A DNA stretch of 19,865 bases from Octopus sinensis (taxonomy: Eukaryota). The position numbers were made by a program, and so were the translations under genes. The notes under the pieces were generated by a model, which was not told where the DNA came from, did not search any database, and saw only the letters and a list, made by a program, of their open reading frames with translations. The stretch spans positions 1-19,865 of the forward strand of contig NW_021824104.1 in assembly GCF_006345805.1 (NCBI RefSeq). The letters run 5' to 3'. This document shows, piece by piece, positions 1-19,865 of the stretch (the first letter of the stretch is position 1; every line of letters begins with the position of its first letter).

Positions 1-289
1 TTATAATTTCAACAATTGAGGGTAAAATTAATTAATTAATCAATTTCACCAAGTGTTCAGTATGCAAAGGGATCATTTAAGGCGAATTCAAATTATTACA
101 TTATATAAAAGGGCTTAGTAAAATAAAATACTTTGCCGCATACTGAACTCATTAGAAATAGCAGCTAAAAAAACATTTATAAAACTATTTCTAATACTTA
201 AAGAAAACCTCTCTCATATAGTGTTTGCTCAATTCAACTCACGGAAGTATGGGGGTAGAGACATTAAAAAATCATATGCAAAGGTTATT

Positions 290-342
290 TGAGAACGTAC
301 GTTTCAAGATTAGTCAAAATCGACATTTCTATCATCAGCTCA
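290..342 (-). ncRNA. Type I hammerhead ribozyme motif (unit 1; repeated in each full unit)
   Basis: Minus strand reads UGAG (342-339), CUGAUGA (338-332), U-AGA-AAU-GUCG-AUUU-UGAC-UAA-UCU-U (helix II, 331-306), GAAA (305-302), C-GUAC-G-U-U (301-294), CUCA (293-290). Helix I is UGAG/CUCA, extendable to AGGG/CCUU in most units. Helix III is short with a palindromic GUAC loop. Predicted cleavage is after GUU, between 294 and 293. Caveats: the 10.1-11.1 position is U-U instead of the usual G-C, and H17 is U. Confidence 0.75.
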
Positions 343-3300
343 GAAATCCTGGTTTGGATTTGAAAACACTGAAAGTAGGAGCATACCCCATCGGCCTCCT
401 ATCGCTTCTGAAGATCCGCTCGTAACTAACAGTGCCAACAAACTCAAAAATGCAAGCGAAGAATTTCTGCTCTCCCCTTTCCACCAGCGTGGGTTAAAAT
501 CAGCAAACACTATTCTTTTTACGGTAAAATCCGAGGCATTTATATAGAGAGAGATGAATTATAATTTCAACAATTGAGGGTAAAATTAATTAATTAATCA
601 ATTTCACCAAGTGTTCAGTATGCAAAGGGACCATTTAAGGCGAATTCAAATTATTACATTATATAAAATGGCTTAGTAAAATAAATTACTTTGCCGCATA
701 CTGAACTCATTAGAAATAGCAGCTAAAAAAACATTTATAAAACTATTTCTAATACTTAAAGAAAACCTCTCTCATATAGTGTTTGCTCAATTCAACTCAC
801 GGAAGTATGGGGGGTAGAGACATTAAAAAATCATATGCAAAGGTTATTTGAGAACGTACGTTTCAAGATTAGTCAAAATCGACAATTCTATCATCAGATC
901 AGAACTCCCTGGTTTGGATTTGAAAACACTGAAAGTAGGAGCATACCCCTTCGGCCTCCTATCGCTTCTGAAGATCCGATCGTAACTAACAGTGCCAACA
1001 AACTCAAAAATGCAAGCGAAGAATTTCTGCTCTCCCCTTTCCACCAGCGTGGGTTAAATTCAGCAAACACTATGCTTTTTTCGGTAAAATCCGAGGCATT
1101 TAAATAGAGAGAGATGAATTATAATTTCAACAATTGAGGGTAAAATTAATTAATTAATCAATTTCACCAAGTGTTCAGTATGCAAAGGGACCATTTAAGG
1201 CGAATTCAAATTATTACATTATATAAAAGGGCTTAGTAAAATAAAATACTTTGCCGCATACTGAACTCATTAGAAATAGCAGCTAAAAAAACATTTATAA
1301 AACTATTTCTAATACTTAAAGAAAACCTCTCTCATATAGTGTTTGCTCAATTCAACTCACGGAAGTATGGGGGGTAGAGACATTAAAAAATCATATGCAA
1401 AGGTTATTTGAGAACGTACGTTTCAAGATTAGTCAAAATCGACATTTCTATCATCAGCTCAGAACTCCTGGTTTGGATTTGAAAACACTGAAAGTAGGAG
1501 CATACCCCTTCGGCCTCCTATCGCTCTGAAGATCCGCTCGTAACTAACAGTGCCAACAAACTCAAAAATGCAAGCGAAGAATTTCTGCTCTCCCCTTTCC
1601 ACTAGCGTGGGTTAAAATCAGCAAACACTATGCTTTTTTCGGTAAAATCCGAGGCATTTAAATAGAGAGAGATGAATTATAATTTCAACAATTGAGGGTA
1701 AAATTAATTAATTAATCAATTTCACCAAGTGTTCAGTATGCAAAGGGACCATTTAAGGCGAATTCAAATTATTACATTATATAAAAGGGCTTATTAAAAT
1801 AAATTACTTTGCCGCATACTGAACTCATTAGAAATAGCAGCTAAAAAACATTTATAAAACTATTTCTAATACTTAAAGAAAACCTCTCTCATATAGTGTT
1901 TGCTCAATTCAACTCACGGAAGTATGGGGGGTAGAGACATTAAAAAATCATATGCAAAGGTTATTTGAGAACGTACGTTTCAAGATTAGTCAAAATCGAC
2001 ATTTCTATCATCAGCTCAGAACTCCCTGGTTTGGATTTGAAAACACTGAAAGTAGGAGCATAACCCATCGGCCTCCTATCGCTTCTGAAGTTCCGATCGT
2101 AACTAACAGTGCCAACAAACTCAAAAATGCAAGCGAAGAATTTCTGCTCTCCCCTTTCCACCAGCGTGGGTTAAAATCAGCAAAAACTATGCTTTTTTCG
2201 GTAAAATCCGAGGCATTTAAATAGAGAGAGATGAATTATAATTTCAACAATTGAGGGTAAAATTAATTAATTAATCAATTTCACCAAGTGTTCAGTATGC
2301 AAAGGGACCATTTAAGGCGAATTCAAATTATTACATTATATAAAAGGGCTTAGTAAAATAATTACTTTGCCGCATACTGAACTCATTAGAAATAGCAGCT
2401 AAAAAAAGATTTATAAAACTATTTCTAATACTTAAAGAAAACCTCTCTCATATAGTGTTTGCTCAATTCAACTCACGGAAGTATGGGGGGTAGAGACATT
2501 AAAAAATCATATGCAAAGGTTATTTGAGAACGTACGTTTGAAGATTAGTCAAAATCGACATTTCTATCATTAGCTCAGAACTCCCTGGTTTGGATTTGAA
2601 AACACTGAAAGTAGGAGCATACCCCTTCGGCCTCCTATCGCTTCTGAAGATCCGCTCGTAACTAACAGTGCCAACAAACTCAAAAATGCAAGCGAAGAAT
2701 TTCTGCTCTCCCCTTTCCACCAGCGTGGGTTAAAATCAGCAAACACTATGCTTTTTTCGGTAAAATCCGAGGCATTTAAATAGAGAGAGATGAATTATAA
2801 TTTCAACAATTGAGGGTAAAATTAATTATTAATCAATTTCACCAAGTGTTCAGTATGCAAAGGGATAATTTAGGCGAATTCAAATTATTACATTATATAA
2901 AAGGGCTTAGTAAAATAAAATACTTTGCCGCATACTGAACTCATTAGAAATAGCAGCTAAAAAAACATTTATAAAACTATTTCTAATACTTAAAGAAAAC
3001 CTCTCTCATATAGTGTTTGCTCAATTCAACTCAAGGAAGTATGGGGGGTAGAGACATAAAAAAATCATATGCAAAGGTTATTTGAGAACGTACGTTTCAA
3101 GATTAGTCAAAATCGACATTTCTATCATCAGCTCAGCAGAAATCCCTGGTTGGATTTGAAAACACTGAAAGTAGGAGCATACCCCATCGGCCTCCTATCG
3201 CTTCTGAAGATCCGCTCGTAACTAACAGTGCCAACAAACTCAAAAATGCAAGCGAAGAATTTCTGCTCTCCCCTTTCCACCAGCGTGGGTTAAAATCAGC

Positions 3301-6300
3301 AAACACTATGCTTTTTTCGGTAAAATCCGAGGCATTTAAATAGAGAGAGATGAATTATAATTTCAACAATTGAGGGTAAAATTAATTAATTAATCAATTT
3401 CACCAAGTGTTCAGTATGCAAAGGGATCATTTAAGGCGAATTCAAATTATTACATTATATAAAAGGGCTTAGTAAAATAAAATACTTTGCCGCATACTGA
3501 ACTCATTAGAAATAGCAGCTAAAAAAACATTTATAAAAACTATTCTAATACTTAAAGAAAACCTCTCTCATAGAGTGTTTGCTCAATTCAACTCACGGAA
3601 GTATGGGGGGTAGAGACATTAAAAAATCATATGCAAAGGTTATTTGAGAACGTACGTTTCAAGATTAGTCAAAATCGACATTTCTATCATCAGCTCAGAA
3701 ATCCCTGGTTTGGATTTGAAAACACTGAAAGTAGGAGCATACCCCATCGGCCTCCTATCGCTTCTGAAGATCCGATCGTAACTAACAGTGCCAACAAACT
3801 CAAAAATGCAAGCGAAGAATTTCTCTCCCCTTTCCACCAGCGTGAGTTAAAATCAGCAAACACTATGCTTTTTTCGGTAAAATCCGAGGCATTTAATAGA
3901 AAGAGATGAATTATAATTTCAACAATTGAGGGTAAAATTAATTAATTAATCAATTTCACCAAGTGTTCAGTATGCAAAGGGACCATTAAGGCGAATTCAA
4001 ATTATTACATTATATAAAAGGGCTTAGTAAAATAAATTACTTTGCCGCATACTGAACTCATTAGAAATAGCAGCTAAAAAAAGATTTATAAAACTATTTC
4101 TAATACGTAAAGAAAACCTCTCTCATATAGTGTTTGCTCAATTCAACTCACGGAAGTATGGACGGTAGAGACATTAAAAAATCATATGCAAAGGTTATTT
4201 GAGAACGTACGTTTGAAGATTAGTCAAAATCGACATTTCTATCATTAGCTCAGAACTCCCTGGTTTGGATTTGAAAACACTGAAAGTAGGAGCATACCCC
4301 TTCGGCCTCCTATCGCTTCTGAAGATCTGCTCGTAACTAACAGTGCCAACAAACTCAAAAATGCAAGCGAAGAATTTCTGCTCCCCTTTCCACCAGCGTG
4401 GGTTAAATTAAAATCAGCAACACTATGCTTTTTTCGGTAAAATCCGAGGCATTTAAATAGAGAGAGATGAATTATAATTTCAACAATTGAGGGTAAAATT
4501 AATTAATTAATCAATTTCACCAAGTGTTCAGTATGCAAAGGGATCATTTAAGGCGAATTCAAATTATTACATTATATAAAAGGGCTTAGTAAAATAAAAT
4601 ACTTTGCCGCATACTGAACTCATTAGAAATAGCAGCTAAAAAAACATTTATAAAACTATTTCTAATACTTAAAGAAACCTCTCTCATATAGTGTTTGCTC
4701 AATTCAACTCACGGAAGTAGGGGGTAGGGTAGAGACATTAAAAAATCATATGCAAAGGTTATTTGAGAACGTACGTTTCAAGATTAGTCAAAATCGACAT
4801 TTCTATCATCAGCTCAGAAATCCCTGGTTTGGATTTGAAAACACTGAAATGTAGGAGCATACCCTTCGGCCTCCTATCGCTTCTGAAGATCCGCTCGTAA
4901 CTAACAGTGCCAACAAACTCAAAAATGCAAGCGAAGAATTTCTGCTCTCCCCTTTCCACCAGCGTGGGTTAAAATCAGCAAACACTATGCTTTTTACGGT
5001 AAAATCCGAGGCATTATATAGAGAGAGATGAATATAATTTCAACAATTGAGGGTAAAATTAATAATTAATCAATTTCACCAAGTGTTCAGTATGCAAAGG
5101 GACCATTTAAGGCGAATTCAAATTATTACATTATATAAAAGGGCTTAGTAAAATAAATTACTTTGCCGCATACTGAACTCATTAGAAATAGCAGCTAAAA
5201 AAACATTTATAAAACTATTTCTAATACTTAAAGAAAACCTCTCTCATATAGTGTTTGCTCAATTCAACTCACGGAAGTATGGGGGTAGAGACATTAAAAA
5301 ATCATATGCAAGGTTATTTGAGAACGTACGTTCAAGATTAGTCAAAATCGACAATTCTATCATCAGCTCAGAACTCCCTGGTTTGGATTTGAAAACACTG
5401 AAAGTAGGAGAACATACCCTTCGGGCCTCTATCGTTCTGAAGATCCGATCGTAACTAACAGTGCCAACAAACTCAAAAATGCAAGCGAAGAATTTCTGCT
5501 CTCCCCTTTCCACCAGCGTGGGTTAAATTCAGCAAACACTATGCTTTTTTCGGTAAAATCCGAGGCATTTAAATAGAGAGAGATGAATTATAATTTCAAC
5601 AATTGAGGGTAAAATTAATTAATTAATCAATTTCACCAAGTGTTCAGTATGCAAAGGGACCATTTAAGGCGAATTCAAATTATTACATTATATAAAAGGG
5701 CTTAGTAAAATAAATTACTTTGCCGCATACTGAACTCATTAGAAATAGCAGCTAAAAAAACATTTATAAAACTATTTCTAATACTTAAAGAAAACCTCTC
5801 TCATATAGTGTTTGCTCAATTCAACTCACGGAAGTATGGGGGGTAGAGACATTAAAAAATCATATGCAAAGTTTATTGAGAACGTACGTTTCAAGATTAG
5901 TCAAAATCGACATTTCTATCATCAGCTCAGAATCCCTGGTTTGGATTTGAAAACACTGAAAGTAGGAGCATACCCTTCGGCCTCCTATCGCTTCTGAAGA
6001 TCCGCTCGTAACTAACAGTGCCAACAAACTCAAAAATGCAAGCGAAGAATTTCTGCTCTCCCCTTTCCACCAGCGTGGGTTAAAATCAGCAAACACTATG
6101 CTTTTTTCGGTAAAATCCGAGGCATTTAAATAGAGAGAGATGAATTATAATTTCAACAATTGAGGGTAAAATTAATTAATTAATCAATTTCACCAAGTGT
6201 TCAGTATGCAAAGGGACCATTTAAGGCGAATTCAAATTATTACATTATATAAAAGGGCTTAGTAAAATAAATTACTTTGCCGCATACTGAACTCATTAGA

Positions 6301-7550
6301 AATAGCAGCTAAAAAAACATTTATAAAACTATTTCTAATACTTAAAGAAAACCTCTCTCATATAGTGTTTGCTCAATTCAACTCACGGAAGTATGGGGGT
6401 AGAGACATTAAAAAATCATATGCAAAGGTTATTTGAGAACGTACGTTTCAAGATTAGTCAAAATCGACATTTCTATCATCAGCTCAGAACTCCCTGGTTT
6501 GGATTTGAAAACACTGAAAGTAGGAGCATAACCCATCGGCTCCTATCGCTTCTGAAGATCCGATCGTAACTAACAGTGCCAACAAACTCAAAAATGCAAG
6601 CGAAGAATTTCTGCTCTCCCCTTTCCACCAGCGTGGGTTAAAATCAGCAAAAACTATGCTTTTTTCGGTAAAATCCGAGGCATTTAAATAGAGAGAGATG
6701 AATTATAATTTCAACAATTGAGGGTAAAATTAATTAATTAATCAATTTCACCAAGTGTTCAGTATGCAAAGGGACCATTTAAGGCGAATTCAAATTATTA
6801 CATTATATAAAAGGGCTTAGTAAAATAAATTACTTTGCCGCATACTGAACTCATTAGAAATAGCAGCTAAAAAAAGATTATTAAAACTATTTCTAATACT
6901 TAAAGAAAACCTCTCTCATATAGTGTTTGCTCAATTCAACTCACGGAAGTATGGGGGGTAGAGACATTAAAAAATCATATGCAAAGGTTATTTGAGAACG
7001 TACGTTTGAAGATTAGTCAAAATCGACATTTCTATCATTAGCTCAGAAACCCTGGTTTGGATTTGAAAACACTGAAAGTAGGAGCATACCCCTTCGGCCT
7101 CTATCGCTTCTGAAGATCCGCTCGTAACTAACAGTGCCAACAAACTCAAAAATGCAAGCGAAGAATTTCTGCTCTCCCCTTTCCACCAGCGTGGGTTAAA
7201 ATCAGCAAACACTATGCTTTTTTCGGTAAAATCCGAGGCATTTAAATAGAGAGAGATGAATTATAATTTCAACAATTGAGGGTAAAATTAATTAATTAAT
7301 CAATTTCACCAAGTGTTCAGTATGCAAAGGGATCATTTAAGGCGAATTCAAATTATTACATTATATAAAAGGGCTTAGTAAAATAAAATACTTTGCCGCA
7401 TACTGAACTCATTAGAAATAGCAGCTAAAAAAACATTTATAAAACTATTTCTAATACTTAAAGAAAACCTCTCTCATATAGTGTTTGCTCAATTCAACTC
7501 ACGGAAGTATGGGGGGTAGAGACATTAAAAAATCATATGCAAAGGTTATT

Positions 7551-7603
7551 TGAGAACGTACGTTTCAAGATTAGTCAAAATCGACATTTCTATCATCAGC
7601 TCA
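7551..7603 (-). ncRNA. Type I hammerhead ribozyme motif in a clean 560-bp unit (unit 14; reference copy)
   Basis: Plus strand TGAGAACGTACGTTTCAAGATTAGTCAAAATCGACATTTCTATCATCAGCTCA is the reverse complement of the intact motif. By eye, both CUGAUGA and GAAA are intact in 18 of 24 full units. Confidence 0.75.
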
Positions 7604-10600
7604 GAAATCCCTGGTTTGGATTTGAAAACACTGAAAGTAGGAGCATACCCCTTCGGCCTCCTATCGCTTCTGAAGATCCGCTCGTAACTAACAGTGCCAA
7701 CAAACTCAAAAATGCAAGCGAAGAATTTCTGCTCTCCCCTTTCCACCAGCGTGGGTTAAAATCAGCAAACACTATGCTTTTTACGGTAAAATCCGAGGCA
7801 TTTATATAGAGAGAGATGAATTATAATTTCAACAATTGAGGGTAAAATTAATTAATTAATCAATTTCACCAAGTGTTCAGTATGCAAAGGGACCATTTAA
7901 GGCGAATTCAAATTATTACATTATATAAAAGGGCTTAGTAAAATAAATTACTTTGCCGCATACTGAACTCATTAGAAATAGCAGCTAAAAAAACATTTAT
8001 AAAACTATTTCTAATACTTAAAGAAAACCTCTCTCATATAGTGTTTGCTCAATTCAACTCACGGAAGTATGGGGGGTAGAGACATTAAAAAATCATATGC
8101 AAAGGTTATTTGAGAACGTACGTTTCAAGATTAGTCAAAATCGACATTTCTATCATTAGCTCAGAACTCCCTGGTTTGGATTTGAAAACACTGAAAGTAG
8201 GAGCATACCCCTTCGGCCTCCTATCGCTTCTGAAGATCCGCTCGTAACTAACAGTGCCAACAAACTCAAAAATGCAAGCGAAGAATTTCTGCTCTCCCCT
8301 TTCCACCAGCGTGGGTTAAAATCAGCAAACACTATGCTTTTTTCGGTAAAATCCGAGTCATTTAAATAGAGAGAGATGAATTATAATTTCAACAATTGAG
8401 GGTAAAATTAATTAATTAATCAATTTCACCAAGTGTTCAGTATGCAAAGGGATCATTTAAGGCGAATTCAAATTATTACATTATATAAAAGGGCTTATTA
8501 AAATAAAATACTTTGCCGCATACTGAACTCATTAGAAATAGCAGCTAAAAAAACATTTATAAAACTATTTCTAATACTTAAAGAAAACCTCTCTCATATA
8601 GTGTTTGCTCAATTCAACTCACGGAAGTATGGGGGGTAGAGACATTAAAAAATCATATGCAAAGGTTATTTGAGAACGTACGTTTCAAGATTAGTCAAAA
8701 TCGACATTTCTATCATCAGCTCAGAAATCCCTGGTTTGGATTTGAAAACACTGAAAGTAGGAGCATACCCCTTCGGCCTCCTATCGCTTCTGAAGATCCG
8801 CTCGTAACTAACAGTGCCAACAAACTCAAAAATGCAAGCGAAGAATTTCTGCTCTCCCCTTTCCACCAGCGTGGGTTAAAATCAGCAAACACTATGCTTT
8901 TTTCGGTAAAATCCGAGGCATTTAAATAGAGAGAGATGAATTATAATTTCAACAATTGAGGGTAAAATTAATTAATTAATCAATTTCACCAAGTGTTCAG
9001 TATGCAAAGGGACCATTTAAGGCGAATTCAAATTATTACATTATATAAAAGGGCTTAGTAAAATAAATTACTTTGCCGCATACTGAACTCATTAGAAAAG
9101 CAGCTAAAAAAACATTTATAAAACTATTCTAATACTTAAAGAAAACCTCTCTCATATAGTGTTTGCTCAATTCAACTCACGGAAGTATGGGGGGTAGAGA
9201 CATTAAAAAATCATATGCAAAGGTTATTTGAGAACGTACGTTTCAAGATTAGTCAAAATCGACATTTCTATCATCAGCTCAGAACTCCCTGGTTTGGATT
9301 TGAAAACACTGAAAGTAGGAGCATAACCCATCGGCCTCCTATCGCTTCTGAAGATCCGATCGTAACTAACAGTGCCAACAAACTCAAAAATGCAAGCGAA
9401 GAATTTCTGCTCTCCCCTTTCCACCAGCGTGGGTTAAAATCAGCAAAAACTATGCTTTTTTCGGTAAAATCCGAGGCATTTAAATAGAGAGAGATGAATT
9501 ATAATTTCAACAATTGAGGGTAAAATTAATTAATTAATCAATTTCACCAAGTGTTCAGTATGCAAAGGGACCATTTAAGGCGAATTCAAATTATTACATT
9601 ATATAAAAGGGCTTAGTAAAATAAATTACTTTGCCGCATACTGAACTCATTAGAAATAGCAGCTAAAAAAAGATTTATAAAACTATTTCTAATACTTAAA
9701 GAAAACCTCTCTCATATAGTGTTTGCTCAATTCAACTCACGGAAGTATGGGGGGTAGAGACATTAAAAAATCATATGCAAAGGTTATTTGAGAACGTACG
9801 TTTGAAGATTAGTCAAAATCGACATTTCTATCATTAGCTAAAGAACTCCCTGGTTTGGATTTGAAAACACTGAAAGTAGGAGCATACCCCTTCGGCCTCC
9901 TATCGCTTCTGAAGATCCGCTCGTAACTAACAGTGCCAACAAACTCAAAAATGCAAGCGAAGAATTTCTGCTCTCCCCTTTCCACCAGCGTGGGTTAAAA
10001 TCAGCAAACACTATGCTTTTTTCGGTAAAATCCGAGGCATTTAAATAGAGAGTGATGAATTATAATTTCAACAATTGAGGGTAAAATTAATTAATTAATC
10101 AATTTCACCAAGTGTTCAGTATGCAAAGGGATCATTTAAGGCGAATTCAAATTATTACATTATAATAAAAGGGCTTAGTAAAATAAAATACTTTGCCGCA
10201 TACTGAACTCATTAGAAATAGCAGCTAAAAAAACATTTAAAACTATTTCTAATACTTAAAGAAAACCTCTCTCATATAGTGTTTGCTCAATTCAACTCAC
10301 GAAAGTATGGGGGGTAGAGACATTAAAAAATCATATGCAAAGGTTATTTGAGAACGTACGTTTCAGATTAGTCAAAATCGACATTTCTATCATCAGCTCA
10401 GAAATCCCTGGTTTGGATTTGAAAACACTGAAAGTAGAGCATACCCCTTCGGCCTCCTATCGCTTCTGAAGATCCGCTCGTAACTAACAGTGCCAACAAA
10501 CTCAAAAATGCAAGCGAAGAATTTCTGCTCTCCCCTTCCACCAGCGTGGGTTAAATTCAGCAAAACACTATGCTTTTTTCGGTAAAATCCGAGGCATTTA

Positions 10601-13479
10601 AATAGAGAGAGATGAATTATAATTTCAACAATTGGGGTAAAATTAATTAATTAATCAATTTCACCAAGTGTTCAGTATGCAAAGGGACCATTTAAGGCGA
10701 ATTCAAATTATTACATTATATAAAAGGGCTTAGTAAAATAAAATACTTTGCCGCATACTGAACTCATTAGAAATAGCAGCTAAAAAAACATTTATAAAAC
10801 TATTTCTAATACTTAAAGAAAACCTCTCTCATATAGTGTTTGCTCAATTAACTCACGGAAGTATGGGGGGTAGAGACATTAAAAAATCATATGCAAAGGT
10901 TATTTGAGAACGTACGTTTCAAGATTAGTCAAAATCGACATTTCTATCATCAGTCAGAACTCCCTGGTTGGATTTAAAAACACTGAAAGTAGGAGCATAC
11001 CCCTTCGGCTCCTATCGCTTCTGAAGATCCGCTCGTAACTAACAGTGCAAACAACTCAAAAATGCAAGCGAAGAATTTCTGCTCTCCCCTTTCCACCAGC
11101 GTGGGTTAAAATCAGCAAACACTATGCTTTTTCGGTAAAATCCGAGGCATTAAATAGAGAGAGATGAATTATAATTTCAACAATTGAGGGTAAAATTAAT
11201 TAATTATCAATTTCACCAAGTGTTCAGTATGCAAAGGGACCATTTAAGGCGAATTCAAATTATACATTATATAAAAGGGCTTAGTAAATATAAATTACTT
11301 TGCCGCATACTGAACTCATTAGAAATAGCAGCTAAAAAAACATTTATAAAACTATTTCTAATACTTAAAGAAAACCTCTCTCATATAGTGTTGCTCAATT
11401 CAACTCACGGAAGTATGGGGGGTAGAGACATTAAAAAATCATATGCACAAGGTTATTTGAGAACGTACGTTTCAAGATTAGTCAAAATCGACATTTCTAT
11501 CATCAGCTCAGAACTCCCTGGTTGGATTTGAAAACACTGAAAGTAGGAGCATACCCCTTCGGCCTCCTATCGCTTCTGAAGATCCGATCGTAACTAACAG
11601 TGCCAACAAACTCAAAAATGCAAGCGAAGAATTTCTGCTCTCCCCTTTCCACCAGCGTGGGTTAAAATCAGCAAACACTATGCTTTTTCGGTAAAATCCG
11701 AGGCATTTAAATAGAGAGAGATGAATTATAATTTCAACAATTGAGGTAAAAATAATTAATTAATCAATTTCACCAAGTGTTCAGTATGCAAAGGGACCAT
11801 TTAAGGCGAATTCAAATTATTACATTATATAAAAGGGCTTAGTAAAATAAATTACTTTGCCGCATACTGAACTCATTAGAAATAGCAGCTAAAAAAACAT
11901 TTATAAAACTATTTCTAATACTAAAGAAAACTCTCTCATATAGTGTTGCTCAATTCAACTCACGGAAGTATGGGGGGTAGAGACATTAAAAAATCATATG
12001 CAAAGGTTATTTGAGAACGTACGTTTCAAGATTAGTCAAAATCGACATTTCTATCATCAGCTCAGAACTCCCTGGTTTGGATTTGAAAACACTGAAAGTA
12101 GGAGCATACCCCTTCGGCCTCCTATCGCTTCTGAAGATCCGCTCGTAACTAACAGTGCCAACAAACTCAAAAATGCAAGCGAAGAATTTCTGCTCTCCCC
12201 TTTCCACCAGCGTGGGTTAAAATCAGCAAACACTATGCTTTTTTCGGTAAAATCCGAGGCATTTAAATAGAGAGAGATGAATTATAATTTCAACAATTGA
12301 GGGTAAAATTAATTAATTAATCAATTTCACCAAGTGTTCAGTATGCAAAGGGACCATTTAAGGCGAATTCAAATTATTACATTATATAAAAGGGCTTAGT
12401 AAAATAAATTACTTTGCCGCATACTGAACTCATTAGAAATAGCAGCTAAAAAAAGATTTATAAAACTATTTCTAATACGTAAAGAAAACCTCTCTCATAT
12501 AGTGTTTGCTCAATTCAACTCACGGAAGTATGGGGGGTAGAGACATTAAAAAATCATATGCAAAGGTTATTGAGAACGTACGTTTCAAGATAGTCAAAAT
12601 CGACATTCATCATCAGCTCAGAACTCCCTGGTTGGAATTGAAAACACTGAAAGTAGGAGCATAACCCCTTCGGCCTCCTATCGCTTCTGAAGATCGCTCG
12701 TAACTAACAGTGCCAACAAACTCAAAAATGCAAGCGAAGAATTTCCGCTCTCCCCTTCCACCAGCGTGGGTTAAAATGAGCAAACACTATGCTTTTTTCG
12801 GTAAAATCCGAGGCATTTAAATAGAGAGAGATGAATTATAATTTCAACAATTGAGGGTAAAATTAATTAATAATCAATTTCACCAAGTGTTCAGTATGCA
12901 AAGGGACCATTTAAGGCGAATTCAAATTATTACATTATATAAAAGGGCTTAGTAAAATAAATTACTTTGCCGCATACTGAACTCATTAGAAATAGCAGCT
13001 AAAAAAACATTTATAAAACTATTTCTAATACTTAAAGAAAACCTCTCTCATATAGTGTTTGCTCAATTCAACTCACGGAAGTATGGGGGGTAGAGACTTT
13101 AAAAAATCATATGCAAAGGTTATTTGAGAACGTACGTTTCAAGATTAGTCAAAATCGACATTTCTATCATCAGTTCAGAACTCCCTGGTTTGGATTTGAA
13201 AACACTGAAAGTAGGAGCATACCCCTTCGGCCTCCTATCGCTTCTGAAGATCCGCTCGTAACTAACAGTGCCAACAAACTCAAAAATGCAAGCGAAGAAT
13301 TTCTGCTCTCCCCTTTCCACCAGCGTGGGTTAAAATCAGCAAACACTATGCTTTTTTCGGTAAAATCCGAGGCATTTAAATAGAGAGAGATGAATTATAA
13401 TTTCAACAATTGAGGGTAAAATTAATTAATTAATCAATTTCACCAAGTGTTCAGTATGCAAAGGGACCATTTAAGGTCT

Positions 13480-13701
13480 CACTATATGAGAGAGGTTTTC
13501 TTTAAGTATTATAAATAGTTTTATAAATGTTTTTTTAGCTGCTATTTCTAATGAGTTCAGTATGCGGCAAAGTAATTTATTTTACTAAGCCCTTTTATAT
13601 AATGTAATAATTTGAATTCGCCTGAAATGGTCCCTTTGCATACTGAACACTTGGTGAAATTGATTAATTAATTAATTTTACCCTCAATTGTTGAAATTAT
13701 A
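13480..13701 (-). repeat. Inverted terminal copy of unit positions 2-223
   Basis: CACTATATGAGAGAGG...CAATTGTTGAAATTATA is the reverse complement of unit positions 223 to 2 (222 bp), with only 2 substitutions relative to the GACC/AATTA-type units. It is separated from the last forward base (13476) by TCT. Confidence 0.97.
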
Positions 13702-13706
13702 TATTA

Positions 13707-13753
<47 letters not shown>

Positions 13754-13798
13754 TATATTATATATATACATATATATATACACACACACACACACACA
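13702..13798. repeat. (TA)n followed by (CA)n microsatellite; candidate insertion target of the array
   Basis: Directly visible. It abuts the end of the inverted copy (...GAAATTATA|TATTAATATAATATATA...). Confidence 0.95.
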
Positions 13799-14112: not shown

Positions 14113-14131
14113 CATAATAACAATAATAATA
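14053..14131. repeat. (AAT)n microsatellite; likely 3' tail of the adjacent minus-strand SINE
   Basis: Imperfect AAT run. It produces the spurious poly-Ile ORF 14048-14230. Confidence 0.95.
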
Positions 14132-14132
14132 G

Positions 14133-14342
14133 TCGTTCCTACTATAAGCACAAAGCCTGACATATTCTTGGATGGGGGGGAGTTAGTCGATTACATAGCC
14201 CCTAGTACTCAACTTGTATTTAATTTATAGACCTCGAAATGTTGAAATGTGAAGTTGACCTCGGGGGATTTGAACTCAGAAACTAATGATGGATGAAATA
14301 CTACCAAGCATTTTGCCCGGCGTGCTAACGATTCTGCCAGCT
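14133..14342 (-). mobile_element. tRNA-derived SINE, family 1, near full length
   Basis: Minus strand starts AGCTGGCAGAATCGTTAGCACGCCGGGC (A-box-like), has a GAGTTCAAATCC B-box, then a central CGAGGTCAAC...TTTCGAGGTCTATAAATTAAATAC domain and a (TTA)n tail. Homologous to copies at 14386, 14532 and 14916. Confidence 0.85.
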
Positions 14343-14350
14343 AAACCTCA

Positions 14351-14383
<33 letters not shown>
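14351..14383. repeat. (AAT)n microsatellite; tail of the next SINE
   Basis: Perfect AAT run immediately left of the SINE copy at 14386. Confidence 0.95.
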
Positions 14384-14385
14384 TA

Positions 14386-14531
14386 TCCTGTCTACTGGAA
14401 GCACAAGGACAAGTCCATTACATCGATCCCAGTGTGTAACTGGTACTTAATTTATCGTCTCCGAAAGGATGATGGGCAAAGTCGATCTAAGCGGAATTTG
14501 AACTCAGAATGTAGTGAGAGACGAAATACTT
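14386..14531 (-). mobile_element. SINE family 1, 5'-truncated copy
   Basis: CCCAGTGTGTAACTGGTACTTAATTTATCG...AAAGGATGATGGGCAAAGTCGA...GGAATTTGAACTCAGAA matches the neighbouring copies. The head is missing beyond GACGAAATAC. Confidence 0.85.
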
Positions 14532-14752
14532 ATCTCTTTACTACCACAAGGGGCTAAACACAGAGAGACAAACAAGGACAGACACGCTGATTAAGTCGAT
14601 TATATCGCCTCCAGTGCGTAACTGGTACTTATTTAATCGACTACAAAGGATGAAAGGCAATATCGACCTCGGTGGAATTTGCACTCGGTGGAATTTGAAC
14701 TCAGAACGTAACCGCAGACGAAATACTTCTAAACGTTTCGCCCGGCGTACCA
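14532..14752 (-). mobile_element. SINE family 1, variant with a different 3' region and an internal 16-bp duplication
   Basis: Same core (CCAGTGCGTAACTGGTACTTATTTAATCGAC...AAAGGATGAAAGGCAA...GGAATTTGAACTCAGAACGTA...GCCCGGCGT), but the 3' part is TACCACAAGGGGCTAAACACAGAG. CTCGGTGGAATTTG(C/A)A is duplicated at 14668-14699. Confidence 0.85.
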
Positions 14753-14779
14753 ACAACAACAACAACAACAACAACAACA
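14751..14779. repeat. (CAA)n microsatellite
   Basis: Directly visible. It gives the poly-Leu stretch in spurious ORF 14541-14876. Confidence 0.95.
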
Positions 14780-14915
14780 CAATAAAGTGAATATCAAATA
14801 TATATTGCGCGTGTTTCATTGGCAACAGACGACCATCTCCAAATAGAAGAATTTCTGTTTTAACACCCAATTTCAAAAATGCATGAACGTAATAATATTA
14901 AATATTAAGTAGAAT

Positions 14916-15048
14916 ATTCCGCCGAGGTTGTCTTTGCCTTTTATCCTTTCGGGGTCGATGAAATGAATATCAGTTATATACTGGGGTCGATGTAATCAAC
15001 TTACTCCTCCCCTGAATTGCTGGTGTTGTGCCAAAATTTGGAATCAAT
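14916..15048 (+). mobile_element. SINE family 1, 5'-truncated plus-strand copy
   Basis: ATTCCGCCGAGGTTGTCTTTGCCTTTTATCCTTTCGGGGTCGATGAAATGAATATCAG...CTGGGGTCGATGTAATCAACT is the reverse complement of the core of the preceding copies. Confidence 0.85.
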
Positions 15049-15196
15049 GTGTAGGAGAAATAAAACAAAACACAGCATCACTCACTAATGGACACCATGT
15101 TAATGGTTTTAACAAATTATAAAGTGAACGGCTTGGAGAGTGTTTCATCTTTATGCGTGTTTCCTTGGATTGAATCTGTGTAGGGGGGCATGTTTA

Positions 15197-15353
15197 GGCG
15201 CGGCTGTGTGGTAAGACGCTTGCTTCCAAATTTGGATTCGGGTTCAGTTCCACTGCGTGGCACGCTACATAAATGTCTTCTACTGTAGCCATTGGACTCT
15301 CAAAATCTTCAGGAGTGGATTTGGTAGATGGAAACGGAAAGAAGCCTATCGTG
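15197..15353 (+). mobile_element. tRNA-derived SINE family 2, 5' half (host element interrupted at ~15354)
   Basis: GGCGCGGCTGTGTGGTAAG (A-box-like), GGTTCAGTTCC (B-box-like), TGTCTTCTACT, GAGTGGATTTGGTAGATGGAAACGGAAAGAAGCC. Homologous to the copy at 19596. Confidence 0.85.
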
Positions 15354-15356
15354 ACT

Positions 15357-15720
15357 ATTCTTTTACTTGTTTCAGTCATTTGACTGCGGCCATGTTGGAG
15401 CTCCGCCTTTAGTCGAACAAATCGACCCTAGCACTTAACCTTTGTAATCCTAGTACTTATTCTATCAGTTTCTTTTCCAGAACCGCTATGTTACAGGGAC
15501 GTAAGCACACCAACATCGGTTGTCAAATGATGGTGGAGGGACAAATATAGACACACAAATACACACACACACATACGACGGGCTTATTTGAGTTTCCATC
15601 TATGAAATCCACTCACAAGACTATGGTCGGCCCTTGGCTATAGTAGAAGACACTCAGCCAAAATGTCTCGCAACGGGACTGAACCCGGAACAATGTGTTT
15701 CATACTCTACGGCCACTTCT
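15357..15720 (-). mobile_element. SINE family 2, near full-length antisense copy nested in the plus-strand copy
   Basis: Reverse complement of the head (GGGACTGAACC, TAGTAGAAGACA, AAATCCACTC), an internal (CA)n at 15551-15572, and the 3' half (CACACCAACATCGGTTGTCAA; TTTTACTTGTTTCAGTCATTTGACTGCGGCCATG). Confidence 0.85.
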
Positions 15721-15923
15721 ATGTCTATATATGTCTGTCTGTATGTATCAGTGGTTGTGTCTTTGTGTCAGTGTTTGTCCCACCGCTTGATGACCTGTGT
15801 TGGTGTGTTTACGTTCCGGTAACTTAGCGGTTCACCAATATACTCCAATAAACTAAGTACAAGGCTTAAAAAATTAAGTACAGAGGTCAATTAGTTCGAC
15901 TCAAAACTTCTCAAACCAGTGCC
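15721..15923 (+). mobile_element. SINE family 2, 3' half (likely continuation of 15197-15353)
   Basis: TG-rich linker, then CACCGCTTGATGACCTGTGTTGGTGTGTTTACGTTCCGGTAACTTAGCGGTTC...TAAGTACAAGGCTT...GGTCAATTAGTTCGACT. Homologous to 16335-16522. Confidence 0.75.
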
Positions 15924-16297
15924 ATCTCTATATATACACATAATCCTTTCCGAGCCATGTTCGTTAAAGGAATTGTTCGTTACACGAGAAATTGAAATAC
16001 ATACAAATAGAAGAAATCCGTTCATGCCACTCCCCAAAGCCACATAAAAGTATATATTATACCTTAGCGTTGATACAATAGAAAATCATGTAAAAGGTCG
16101 TATGTAGTGTGACTGCTCAGTTTGGTTTACCACTAAAACACCGGCTTGAACAGAAAAATGTGGTGCAGAAATTGGGTATCATGGGTTTAAGGTGTGGTTG
16201 ATCATTGAGCGGAGGGACATAAATTATAACAGATTAGGAGCAAGAAAAACATTTAGCCTTTTTCAAGAACATTCATTTTATAATTTATAATATAAGT

Positions 16298-16300
<3 letters not shown>

Positions 16301-16335
<35 letters not shown>

Positions 16336-16522
16336 TTTTTGTGTCTGTGTCTGTCCACCACCATCGCTTTACAACCGATGTTGGTGAGTTTACGTCCATG
16401 TAAATTAGTGGTTCAGCAAAGGAGACTCATAGAATAAGTACAAGTCTTATAAATAATAAGTTCGGTGAAAAAGGCATTGCTCCAGCATGGCTGCAGTGAA
16501 ATGGCTGAAACAAATAAAAGAA
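16301..16522 (+). mobile_element. (GT)n plus 3' half of SINE family 2 (headless)
   Basis: (GT)n at 16301-16333, then CACCATCGCTTTACAACCGATGTTGGTGAGTTTACGTCC...GCTCCAGCATGGCTGCAGTGAAATGGCTGAAACAAATAAAAGAA, the reverse complement of 15357-15540. Confidence 0.85.
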
Positions 16523-16859
16523 CTGTGCAGAGTGGTTACAAATATGCACAGAAAAAAGAAAATGCAGAAATGCATAATATCCTTAATCGAGGATATTATT
16601 CGTTCCCAGTCTTTTGGGAAACCATGGAGTTCTCAGATAAATGTGTCTGGTATTTTCGTGATCGAAGAGTTAGTAAAGTTTCCAGGAAAGTCCCTGGCAA
16701 AGGATAATGGAAATTAACAGTTGCATCTTTGAATAGAAAGTGAATCAGATTTGGAAGGCCTTGGAAGAGTCTATTATTGGGCGAATGAGAAATATATGAG
16801 AGTATATAGAGATTAGTCTATATAGTGAAGGGGTGTTTGACTTGGGGGTTAAAAGGATG

Positions 16860-17182
16860 CATGTATACACACACATACATACAGAGAGAGACATACACAT
16901 ACACACACGCACTAACATATGCAAACACACACAGACACACACACAGACACATATGCAGTGGCATATTCCTATTGATATACACACAGTCAGATACACACAC
17001 TTACGCGGCCATACATACACATCCATACGTATGAGTTTAGAAATGGACAGATAAATGTCTGTTTGTACGCACAGACACACCCACATACAAATTCTCGCAT
17101 AGTCATCGTAGATAATTATAGAGAGTTAAATTTAATTAAGTTATTAGAGGAGAGAGAGAGAAAGAGAGAGAGGAGAGTAGAG
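16860..17182. repeat. Degenerate (CA)n-rich low-complexity tract followed by (GA)n
   Basis: CA/TA-rich at 16860-17090 and GA-rich at 17146-17182. Explains the overlapping His/Thr- and Cys/Val-rich ORFs. Confidence 0.85.
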
Positions 17183-17234
17183 ATTGTTTAGTAATTAAGG
17201 ACGAGTAAAAGCAGATGTATAAACACCTGTCGCC

Positions 17235-17610
17235 TCATTGTATATTTGACTACCAATGTGGGCCAGAGTGATTAAATCGCCAAACTGGAAATACCCAGGA
17301 CCGGATAGCGTACAAGGATATTGGCTGAAAATTTCCCCAGCAGTACACAGAAGAATAGCCAAGCAAATATATAAAATGATCAACAACGGGGTACAAATCC
17401 CAAAGTGGCTGACCAAAAGTCAAACAATTCTTTGCCAAAATAATCCCAACAAAGCAATGCAGTGGATAATCACCGGCCTATCACCTGTCTGCCCCTCATG
17501 TGGAAGCTGATGACAGGAATAATATCTAATTAGGTGTATGATTTCCTGGAAATAAATTACAAAGCACCAGTGGAACAGAAAGGTACAGAAAGAATAGCCA
17601 AGGGACACTT
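17235..17610 (+). pseudogene. Degenerate non-LTR retrotransposon (R4/Dong-like) reverse transcriptase, N-terminal RT motifs
   Basis: Translates across one frameshift as SPNWKYPGPDSVQGYWLK...IPKWLTKSQTILCQNNPNK / [42 protein letters not shown]. This matches the PGPD..GYWLK, RPITCLP..WKL and EQKG motifs of R4-clade RTs. Contains a stop and a frameshift. Confidence 0.85.
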
Positions 17611-17624
17611 ACAGACTAATATGT

Positions 17625-17750
17625 TTTCAGAACGGAAAATGAAAAGGGAGACAGTGTTTGTAAGCAACCGCACACGATCAGGCATTCATAACTAACTACA
17701 TAAAATCCAAAATAGACAAAACCCAGGCAATTCCCAATGTAGAGACTTTT
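17625..17750 (+). pseudogene. R4/Dong-like LINE fragment, region leading into the C-terminal zinc knuckle
   Basis: Translates as KRETVFV / ATAHDQAFITNYIKSKIDKTQ / QCR, similar to the KRETE..I.AAQ.QA..TN.IK.KID......CR motif downstream of the RT in this clade. Confidence 0.7.
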
Positions 17751-17809
17751 AACATGAATTCACACAGAAAAGGGAGTCAGCAGTGAAGGCCAGATAGCAA
17801 GAAAGTAAT

Positions 17810-18413
17810 ATCACTGAAGGCAGAGAATCATAAGTGCTTCGGAGTATTAGAATCTGAGAGTGTACTAACAATGGAAATGAAAACAAAAATAGCTAAGGAG
17901 TACATCGGAAAGTTGAAGAAGCTAATGAAGGGAAAGCGAAGGGTTCTAAATCTAGTAAAGGTTGTAAAAACTTTGGGAAGTGTCGTTACTTCGGTATTCA
18001 GCAGAATTTGTTGATTGGAAAACATCTGAATTAGCAAATCTAGACAGAAGAACTAGGAAGGAATTCAATATGAATAGAGGACTTCAGCCTCGATTAGGAA
18101 GAGCAAGATTGCACTTACTTAGAATAACGAAGTTGGAAGCGGTTTAATATCAGCAGAAAGTAGGGTAGAGTTAGCTAGAATTGATATATATAATAATGAA
18201 TAAAATTTATGATTTGCCTGAGTTATAGTAGGAGATAGGAAAGGAAAAAGCCAAATGAAATTAAAACAATAAAAAAAGTAGGAAGATAATCTAACTGACA
18301 AGAGAATGTATGGCAATGTCGATTGGCAAAGATAGTTGCAGGAAATAGTAATATTGAGACATGGTTATGGTTGCTGAAAGGAAGCTGAAAAGGGAGACAG
18401 AGTTTCTAAGCAA
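17810..18413 (+). pseudogene. R4/Dong-like LINE fragment, RT C-terminal end and thumb region
   Basis: Frameshifted translation HKCFGVLESE...EMKTKIAKEYIGKLKKLMKGK..NLVKVVKT / VSLLRYSAEFVDW / ELANLDRRTRK..NMNRGLQP....ARLHL.R / GSGLISAE / DKRMYG / ETWLWLLKG / KRETEFL, following the YKYLG..., RYS..DW, RLY.PR..GG.GL and W.WL..G.LK.ETE motif order. Confidence 0.8.
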
Positions 18414-19595
18414 AAATTAATTGTAAGGTCGGACTTATATTTCGGAGAGATCTATGAAAATTAACATCCACATCATGTGATGTATTACAATAATGATTGC
18501 AGGTGTAGGTTTCAGGACTAATGATTGTCCATTACTTGAACGTTTGCGCTATCAGCCCTATCGTAAGCATTTGAGACAATGATATTCCATTGTCCCACAC
18601 CCTACCGTCTTAACCACGGAAAGAACACAACACACATTGCGATGTAAGTAAATCAACGGCATGATCATGGCCGAAACGCCTCTGATCATAGTCTTGTCAT
18701 CATTGAACAACAAGCATTCTTTACAAATAACTGAAATATATTCTGCGAAACGAGGAAAATTGGCCGGGTTTCCATTTTAGTAACTAGAGCGATGAGGTCC
18801 TATTTTTGAGCAGATATCGCCATCCCAATAATCGGTAAAAACAATGGCGTTTGTTTTAGAAAAGCGACAAGTAGATAAGAATATTCTGTGGGTGTTGTCA
18901 GGACATATGAAAAATAAAGTTTTGGTAATATAATAGAAGTCGAGGACATGAAATCGTGATTAAGGTCGTGATTTCAGATCCTGGGACGAGTGATGTTTTG
19001 TGCGCAGAACAATTCATCTTATGTTGCACAGCGACCATTTCAACACTCGACGTGTAGGAATGGTGACTAGCTGGAAAATGGATTTATTTTCCGGATATTA
19101 AAGAATTTCAGCCAATCACATACATCAAGAAAACATACTGCCACTCTCGTTTTAAAAATAATTAGAGAATTATTACAACAGGATATTTCATTCAGTATGC
19201 TTTTCGGATAGCACCTGGAAGGTTGAGACAAAAAACTTATATGAGGCAATAGAATATTCCGATAAGTGGATAAAACATTTAATTTCTGTCAAAAATTCAA
19301 ACCGAAGTCATATTTGGGGCCGGCTCTATAAAGGTAAATCAATTTTTGTTACTTTTCTTTTAAGATTTAACATTTGTATCTACACACACATGTATATATG
19401 ATTTATTTTTCCCTCTCTCTCTATCTTTCTATAACTATGCAAATTAATACAATTAATTGTTCCTGACGATCATTTGTCGGTGAGATTTTGTTCCAAGCAA
19501 CCATAACGTTGTTACATGCACGTCAGAAATTATTATTAAACATTCTTTGTCCTGTTCATCCTATATATAGACTTCTACATAAACACATATGCATA

Positions 19596-19865
19596 GGCGT
19601 GGCTATGTGGTAAGAAACATGCTTCACAAGCAGATAGTTCCAGGTTCAGTTTCACTGCATGGCAATTTGGGAAAGTGTCTTCTACTATAACCTCAGACCG
19701 ACCAAAGCCTTACGAGTGGATTTGGTAGACGGAAACCGAAAGAAGTGCGTTCTATATGTATCTATATATATTGAAGCATATATGTGTTTGTGTGTGTGGT
19801 GTGTGAGTTTGTTTGTTTGTGTTTGTGTGTTTCTGTCTTTGCGACTATGTTTGTTACCCATTCAT
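19596..19865 (+). mobile_element. SINE family 2, head and internal TG-rich tract, running to the window edge
   Basis: GGCGTGGCTATGTGGTAAG...GGTTCAGTTTCACTGCATGGCA...GTGTCTTCTACTATA...GAGTGGATTTGGTAGACGGAAACCGAAAGAAG, followed by TA/TG repeats. Confidence 0.85.

Follow-up and report, generated by a model that had tools for sequence, protein, structure and literature searches.

A tandem hammerhead array of Octopus sinensis and the Penelope-like insertion signature of its 559-bp element

Introduction

Contig NW_021824104.1 of the Octopus sinensis assembly GCF_006345805.1 (19,865 nucleotides, the whole of which is called the window below) opens with a 13.5-kb tandem array whose unit of about 560 bp carries a hammerhead ribozyme motif on the minus strand. 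The locus raises the question of what such an array is and how it came to lie there. Our results indicate that it is probably a single insertion of a dispersed, non-coding 559-bp element, the RNA circle of which would be copied in rolling-circle fashion by an enzyme of a Penelope-like element (PLE) acting in trans.

Animal retrozymes without long terminal repeats (non-LTR retrozymes) offer the nearest precedent. Their RNA circles have been demonstrated in coral, mussel and axolotl, and PLEs are a strong candidate for their mobiliser (Cervera and de la Pena 2020, PMC7229834). Li, Clavereau and Pollet (bioRxiv 10.64898/2026.07.22.740005) regard retrozymes as non-autonomous PLE derivatives, with families of 51-972 bp, from co-occurrence and pseudo-LTR (pLTR) homology in 35 genomes, molluscs not being among those given in the available text. 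The route of retrozyme circles back into the genome has so far been a hypothesis, in which PLEs are proposed from these two kinds of evidence (PMC7229834, 10.64898/2026.07.22.740005). PLEs themselves are recognised by copies that are inverted and 5'-truncated, by (TA)n targets and by a tail of 30-40 bp at one end, which is described as PLE-specific (Craig et al., PMC8557442), and Frangieh et al. (PMC11167929) account for the tail as the gap between two internal start sites of the reverse transcriptase (RT). The words 'inverted' and 'microsatellite' do not occur in the available part of PMC7229834, nor 'tail' in that of the preprint. In the literature covered, which consisted of main texts and included few subscription papers, neither a cephalopod retrozyme nor a PLE tail or inverted-arm anatomy on any retrozyme is reported; 235 Rfam hammerheads have been counted in the giant squid genome. 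Both the class and its link to PLEs are already in print, and what is new here is a base-precise insertion record and a new family member. The supplements of PMC7229834 and 10.64898/2026.07.22.740005 may list related families or insertion ends, and the family may already be catalogued in Repbase or Dfam.

Results

The array in the window ends as an inverted insertion

An anchor search found 25 unit starts, which delimit 24 full units of 552-561 bp followed by 82 bp and ending at 13476. The units share a mean pairwise identity of 97.2%, and a type I hammerhead motif lies in register on the minus strand of all 24, as an initial annotation of this DNA had proposed. That annotation closed the feature at 13476; the units do end there, and the feature itself continues, since the array reverses and runs on as an inverted arm to 13701, ending in (TA)n. 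Because the array begins at the contig's first base, 13.5 kb is a minimum length. Positions within the unit (q) are counted along the plus strand, with window position 559, the first base of unit 2, as q1; since the ribozyme is read from the minus strand, low q lies towards the RNA 3' side, and the predicted cut falls at q295/q294.

1-13476, minus strand as RNA sense: the insertion's long arm, with 24 units of about 559 bp in tandem and a further 82 bp, truncated by the contig start
290-342, minus strand: type I hammerhead as it stands in unit 1, with the cut predicted at 294/293; every unit has a counterpart
560-655, minus strand: 'tail' of about 95 nt as in unit 2, between the fixed 3' ends (positions 2 and about 97) used by genomic insertions
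13477-13479, no strand: inversion junction, three bases outside both arms
13480-13701, plus strand: short inverted arm, unit positions about 223 to 2, its 3' end facing outward at the site of position 2 (81 nt at 99%, 199 nt at 96%)
13698-13780, no strand: (TA)n target microsatellite

Both ends of the tail are located at UAUA-like motifs. The visible end of the window insertion, q2 followed by (TA)n, matches the pattern of the family described below, from which we predict q97 and (TA)n at the unseen far end.

The unit is a dispersed element with a Penelope-like insertion anatomy

The unit was matched on many contigs (172 matches; 39 scored of 1,725 candidates), and a 17-mer adjoining the cut site has 2,929 exact matches in the 2.7-Gb genome. 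'Satellite', the primary description in the initial annotation, therefore gives way to that of a dispersed mobile element. Scaling from the first 100 of these 17-mer places, which correspond to 50 loci, puts the family at roughly 1,500 loci or more. These 50 consecutive loci, selected only by the presence of the 17-mer, contain 88 arms and form the sample used here; two of them, L184 and L185, resemble one duplicated insertion.

Inverted arms with both RNA 3' ends pointing outward were found at 37 of the 50 loci, a single arm at the remaining 13. The outer ends are strikingly fixed: out of 87 that are visible, 45 lie at q<=6 and 40 at q84-104, with 2 elsewhere, and (TA)n adjoins 82. A q2 end is paired with a q97 end in 32 of the 36 two-arm loci that could be scored. 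In a wider set, 164 of 167 arms end at one of the two fixed sites, and a sister family (B, see below) uses the same two end sites, about 100 nt apart. The arms are tandem or inverted, truncated at random 5' ends and have a median length of about 570 bp, and the tail is present at one end only. They consist of the 559-bp unit alone and carry no open reading frame (ORF) with RT and GIY-YIG domains, as an autonomous PLE would. Altogether, this anatomy makes it very probable that the element is mobilised by PLE-type machinery.

We considered whether the element could instead spread as DNA, as a foldback or miniature inverted-repeat (MITE-like) transposon or a spreading satellite in which the hammerhead-like motif is a relic or a chance occurrence. 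Its insertions are indeed large inverted repeats in TA tracts, Rfam gives no match, and the array in the window has been duplicated at the DNA level. The two outer ends, however, do not match but are offset by a constant 95 nt, the inner ends are random, the autonomous PLEs of this genome share the end pattern, and the motif is rare by chance and covaries across subfamilies (see below), so that this explanation is largely refuted and we hold it to be very improbable.

The hammerhead motif is conserved

In each unit the minus strand reads UGAG CUGAUGA (helix II) GAAA CGUACG UU/CUCA. Helix I has 4 bp, the core is CUGAUGA/GAAA, helix II has a U-U at its base and an internal loop, the triplet before the cut is GUU, and helix III is reduced to two base pairs closed by a GUAC tetraloop. 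The motif thus has the type I core (CUGANGA...GAAA...UH) and helices I-III, and its ends lie in helix I. The minimal helix III, the 10-nt palindrome in which it lies, the U-U at 10.1-11.1 and the GUU triplet are all as initially annotated, and our recount likewise gave an intact catalytic core in 18 of 24 units; the core together with all three helices is intact in 13. Five units carry the core change G5A, four of these also G12C, and one unit has lost an A of GAAA. G5A inactivates hammerheads, and GUU is a slow triplet.

2525-2577, 4200-4252, 6993-7045, 8111-8163 and 9789-9841, minus strand: five units with the core change G5A, a recurring haplotype

The motif is not a chance occurrence, since a descriptor of it matched 4 times in 20,000 dinucleotide shuffles of one unit, either strand counted. 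Relatives of the window family (A) were then informative. Subfamily C is 88-93% identical and has a GUA triplet and a G-U at the base of helix II; sister family B (4,095 first-look candidates) is about 73% identical and keeps the motif with compensatory changes. From 82 distinct motifs we chose 31 by hand so that A, B and C were all represented, and aligned them on a structure made of the hammerhead and a distal helix I. In this alignment 98.9% of 558 cells were paired, and two-sided changes were seen in 4 pairs, three belonging to helix II and the fourth to distal helix I; none occurred in helix III or proximal helix I, which were conserved. For three of five covariation measures, none of 500 shuffles reached the observed value. 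Between loci, variability was 0.4% at 11 core positions compared with 5.8% at 438 others. Conservation and covariation among diverged relatives, whose absence the initial annotation had named as refuting its reading, were found.

The helix III loop varies among copies (GUAC, GUUAAC, GUGAGC, GUGAC), and the palindrome is thus not a fixed feature of the family. Cleavage as dimers joined through this palindrome, as first suggested, is accordingly doubtful as a family trait. An 8-bp self-duplex is possible in families A and C and favourable (-9.8 kcal/mol), and the axolotl motif HHR_Amex2, the closest published one, cleaves better as a dimer (PMC7229834); against this, many loops of the sister family, such as GUGAGC, are non-palindromic.

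Autonomous PLEs of the same genome share the end pattern

Young intact PLEs encoding an RT with a C-terminal GIY-YIG domain are present in this genome, with proteins of 775, 781 and 784 aa. In the 775- and 784-aa families the arms are inverted, (TA)n is present, and the 3' ends fall at two TATA-like motifs separated by about 30-40 nt. Covariation of the motif, the insertion ends and these local PLEs together support and strengthen the initial proposal of a conserved hammerhead in a retrozyme-like unit that is moved in trans by a Penelope-type enzyme. The CX4CXXC-type linker suggests that these PLEs belong to the Neptune/Nematis type; a protein search with a PLE ORF returned only unnamed relatives and did not fix the clade. 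A PLE sequence partner was also sought at 27 atypical 3' junctions of the element, and none was seen there.

At least three intact RT and GIY-YIG families were seen (L279:3195-5519, L236:3855-6206 and L080:1872-4214), each with an upstream ORF of about 440-480 aa that has no clear Pfam family. Many copies of the 775-aa family are 99-100% identical over 400 aa, and this near-identity implies that the PLEs are probably still active. The terminal repeat of the 775-aa family (L279, about 505-550 bases past the ORF stop) contains a minimal hammerhead-like motif with the core variant CCGAAGA; its GUAC loop and the U-U with which helix II begins at its base are shared with the window motif. The 784-aa family has a more degenerate hammerhead-like motif.

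Which RNA is copied

Arms pass the predicted cut site freely. It is crossed at least once by 74 of the 88 arms and twice or more by 25, the sampling favouring such arms. A terminus pattern that catches about a quarter of termini gave 7 matches at the cut site among 2,929 passes, 5 of them true, compared with 3 true out of 4 and 5 out of 6 at control sites, for which the denominators were estimated from local counts (74 and 73 vs 104). The idea of a cut-site footprint of termini was abandoned: the first pattern had pulled in the GUA subfamily, and the refined test gave no excess over the controls. Likewise, 157 5' ends showed no hotspot (P = 0.18), and 3 of them lay at the cut site where 2.1 were expected. 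Cut linear monomers are therefore not the usual template, and a fixed 5' end of the template is not apparent.

The sequence of the units points in the same direction. When unit-private variants (a count that includes assembly errors) were compared arm against arm, 121 were absent from the mirror unit and 5 were mirrored; a further 5 were cross-arm and unmirrored, and 26 were shared within one arm. At L217, L219 and L189 a private haplotype runs through both arms, with 0.1-0.7% difference within the locus and 0.7-2.4% to the nearest other locus. A core change was fixed in none of 48 multi-unit stretches of A and C, with two arrays contributing two stretches apiece. The possibility that the template had undergone A-to-I editing was considered and set aside, as 3 A>G changes among 24 locus-fixed variants are no excess.

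A conserved ribozyme, free read-through, an endless-looking template and mostly uniform units are together fitted best by a ligated circle, and we consider it reasonably probable, with room for doubt, that the window array arose as one insertion from such a circle, copied by a PLE enzyme in trans. The minus strand would be transcribed across two or more units, and the hammerheads would cut once per unit, helix I holding the ends for ligation as in the published class. A PLE protein would then break both strands of a (TA)n tract and prime from each end, at two fixed internal starts 95 nt apart that correspond to the ends observed. The cDNA would round the circle through the ligated cut site and stop at random, in keeping with the read-through and the random stops seen, and two 5'-truncated arms, as observed, would be joined head to head; some arms, that of the window included, most likely grew later by local DNA duplication, to which the recurring variant blocks point. 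In its most specific form, the proposal is that a telomerase-related PLE RT performs rolling-circle target-primed synthesis on the ribozyme-made circle from both ends of one break, using two fixed UAUA starts in a branched, conserved RNA domain, and is recruited by RNA structure without sequence likeness to its partner; for this form we put the chances at about even. For the cleavage and circularisation predicted in the initial annotation the support is indirect, namely read-through, uniform 5' ends and a predicted conserved circular fold.

A number of results weigh against this model. The Rfam hammerhead models gave no match, either in the whole window at E<=1 or with the single motif at E<=10, a kind of search that the initial annotation had proposed as a check; the extended helix II may explain this. 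Two of the covariation measures were unremarkable (reached by 123 and 359 of 500 shuffles), and the aligned motifs are related as well as hand-picked, so that kinship inflates such tests. RNAalifold recovered helices I and II unaided but paired the core with helix III, which was therefore missed. The active fold is predicted at -2.6 kcal/mol as compared with a minimum of -10.9, and the pair probability of helix I in context is about 0.17. No DNA homology between the unit and a PLE was detected in 82 fetched PLE stretches, which represent a handful of families among thousands of candidates; the sole unit-like DNA in them is separate nearby insertions of the 559-bp element itself. At L221, L223, L224 and L176 the units resemble one another no more closely than they do those of the nearest other locus, three variants of L214 are mirrored, and L069, a tandem of sister family B, has G5A in both units. 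The absence of fixed core changes from the 48 stretches is weak alone, about 0.5 being the estimated expectation from the rate of locus-fixed variants. Finally, a purified anole PLE inserts without a need for ribozyme cleavage, uncut RNA being the main template (PMC11167929).

Several of these points would also be expected if the element were a non-autonomous PLE copied from long uncut linear transcripts, its ribozyme being slow, protein-gated or serving another role, with tandem arms that copy a tandem donor and with local duplication and conversion keeping the arrays long and uniform. Such an element would have the same insertion ends. The weak predicted ribozyme fold, the dominance of uncut RNA as template for the anole PLE in vitro, the variants of L069 and L214, the 26 variants shared within one arm and the five-unit blocks of the window array all agree with it, and in vitro only 1 of 9 Xenopus retrozyme dimers is given as cleaved in the available text of 10.64898/2026.07.22.740005. 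A linear template, however, needs a fixed 5' end, be it a transcription start or a cut site, yet the 5' ends have no hotspot; mirrored variants are rare (the 5 against 121 above), private haplotypes occupy both arms of L217, L219 and L189, and with a median arm of about 570 bp copying alone would shorten the arrays in each generation. We therefore rate this explanation as unlikely, while treating it as the most serious competitor of the circle. A circle would also be dispensable if the PLE enzyme, on reaching the 5' end of one linear, ribozyme-made monomer, jumped precisely to the 3' end of another. Telomerase is related to PLE RTs (PMC8557442), L040 has an arm that terminates at the cut site and then repeats 9 and 6 bases, and four more arms end exactly there; cut-site termini are nevertheless no commoner than those at control sites, and since read-through junctions are scar-free the jumps would need near-perfection, which makes this route improbable.

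At L040:2904-3264, a single case, the repeat of the last 9 and 6 bases is followed by the inverted arm, as if the enzyme had stuttered at the template end.

The predicted monomer fold

Under the preferred circle model, one monomer would run from cut site to cut site, and its fold was compared with that of the opposite strand.

1413-1969, minus strand: one predicted monomer, 557 nt, circular fold z = -7.0, other strand -3.8
13052-13349, minus strand: long-range helix around the ribozyme domain, formed in unit 24 by the arms 13052-13077 and 13324-13349, compensatory changes in the sister family

For four monomers, with 25-40 shuffles each, the z scores of the circular fold were -7.0, -5.3, -6.7 and -8.3 on the ribozyme strand and -3.8, -4.2, -5.0 and -2.6 on the other. 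Predicted self-pairing is thus stronger on the ribozyme strand in 4/4 monomers, and the monomer would form the self-paired circle that is typical of retrozymes. A circular consensus of 32 sequences contains 19 covarying pairs, one or two of which may be alignment artefacts; the opposite strand gave 11, and eight column shuffles gave 3-8.

Probable growth of the array in the window

The haplotype with G5A and G12C is among variant blocks that repeat at mostly five-unit spacing in the array, and these recurring blocks show that the array was most likely lengthened by local DNA duplication after insertion. As the median arm elsewhere is about 570 bp, the arm in the window most likely began shorter and grew in this way. 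It is an outlier of the family, one unusually long arm and not the typical form. Other long arrays with a short inverted arm were seen at L215-L216 (G000:C2:27.92-27.94 Mb) and L023-L024, with about 25 and 16 units respectively; variants shared within the same arm are found in both, as in the window array.

Relation to known retrozymes and PLEs

The unit resembles the animal non-LTR retrozymes of PMC7229834 in being a tandem, non-coding unit with a GC content below 45%, one type I hammerhead per unit and a highly self-paired predicted circle. At least two consecutive complete type I hammerheads are present, and there is no LTR, primer-binding site or polypurine tract; the family is dispersed and multicopy in a genome that also carries autonomous PLEs. 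Like HHR_Amex2, the motif has a two-pair helix III with a tetraloop and a U-U at the base of helix II. The unit is longer, 559 nt as against about 170-400 nt in the families described in PMC7229834, and has a GUU triplet; expression and circles were demonstrated in those families, whereas the octopus family is known from DNA sequence. The novelty that had been seen in the unit length finds no support, as 559 falls inside the 51-972 bp of published retrozyme families (10.64898/2026.07.22.740005). With this preprint we share the conclusion on origin. Its text expects tandems to arise by local amplification, whereas here they appear to be laid down at insertion, and our evidence is insertion anatomy, no homologous pLTR having been found.

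Compared with PLEs that carry an endonuclease (EN+), of the Neptune/Nematis type, the element has the same 5'-truncated tandem or inverted arms, one-end tail and (TA)n targets, with a hammerhead upstream of the start sites (PMC8557442, PMC11167929). It differs in being ORF-free and in a tail of about 95-100 nt instead of the 30-40 nt given in PMC8557442. At both start sites there is a UAUA-like motif with the potential for pairing with target DNA, whereas the anole Poseidon enzyme starts without homology to the cut DNA (PMC11167929). Non-autonomous Chlamys elements such as MRC1 are likewise non-coding PLE parasites with multicopy head-to-tail insertions; as described in PMC8557442, they are without canonical hammerheads and their 3' end resembles the autonomous partner, whereas the octopus unit has a hammerhead and no partner homology was detected.

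The family is young, bears a base-precise PLE tail signature, shares its genome with PLE copies that are intact and nearly identical, and is likely to display the retrozyme copying route unusually clearly. Its predictions are exact (two start sites, a (TA)n target and read-through at the cut site after ligation), and with the in vitro assay published for a PLE (PMC11167929) the step from circle to genome can be tested directly. If the rolling-circle model is true, it would connect animal retrozyme circles directly with the PLE machinery, a connection missing so far, and would account for the origin of tandem hammerhead satellites. A short, structured RNA inserted into TA tracts by an RT and endonuclease may also be of interest as a tool.

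Relatives, transcripts and flanking DNA

Short inverted insertions at L047:2616-2848 and L290:1249-1528 are relatives with 69-87% identity to families A and B, and their distance implies older branches in the group. A separate inverted insertion in (TA)n, seen at L083:5286-6228 and L245:~7600-7691, is likewise non-coding and bears a hammerhead; its helix II is long, its tail measures roughly 165 nt, and it is probably a further retrozyme-like family.

Parts of the unit occur in 23 sequencing runs from five organisms, 17 of which are presumed by guess to be RNA. In four runs the contigs cover 27-30 of 30 unit bins, and in three they bridge the head-to-tail junction; the contigs show neither strand nor RNA ends nor expression level, and some enter the TA flanks. 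A minus-strand intron suggested by a GT-AG-like stretch was rejected, its joint being absent from the run contigs and its acceptor lost in the sister family; octamer/PSE-like and A/B-box-like promoter motifs picked out by eye are not kept between families.

Rfam gave no other credible family in the window, and two short frames in the right flank (14130-19865) had no Pfam match. This flank, whose repeats have a cephalopod-like look, is made up of microsatellites, repeats resembling short interspersed elements (SINE-like) and a decayed non-LTR-like stretch at about 17250-18400, these labels having been given by eye.

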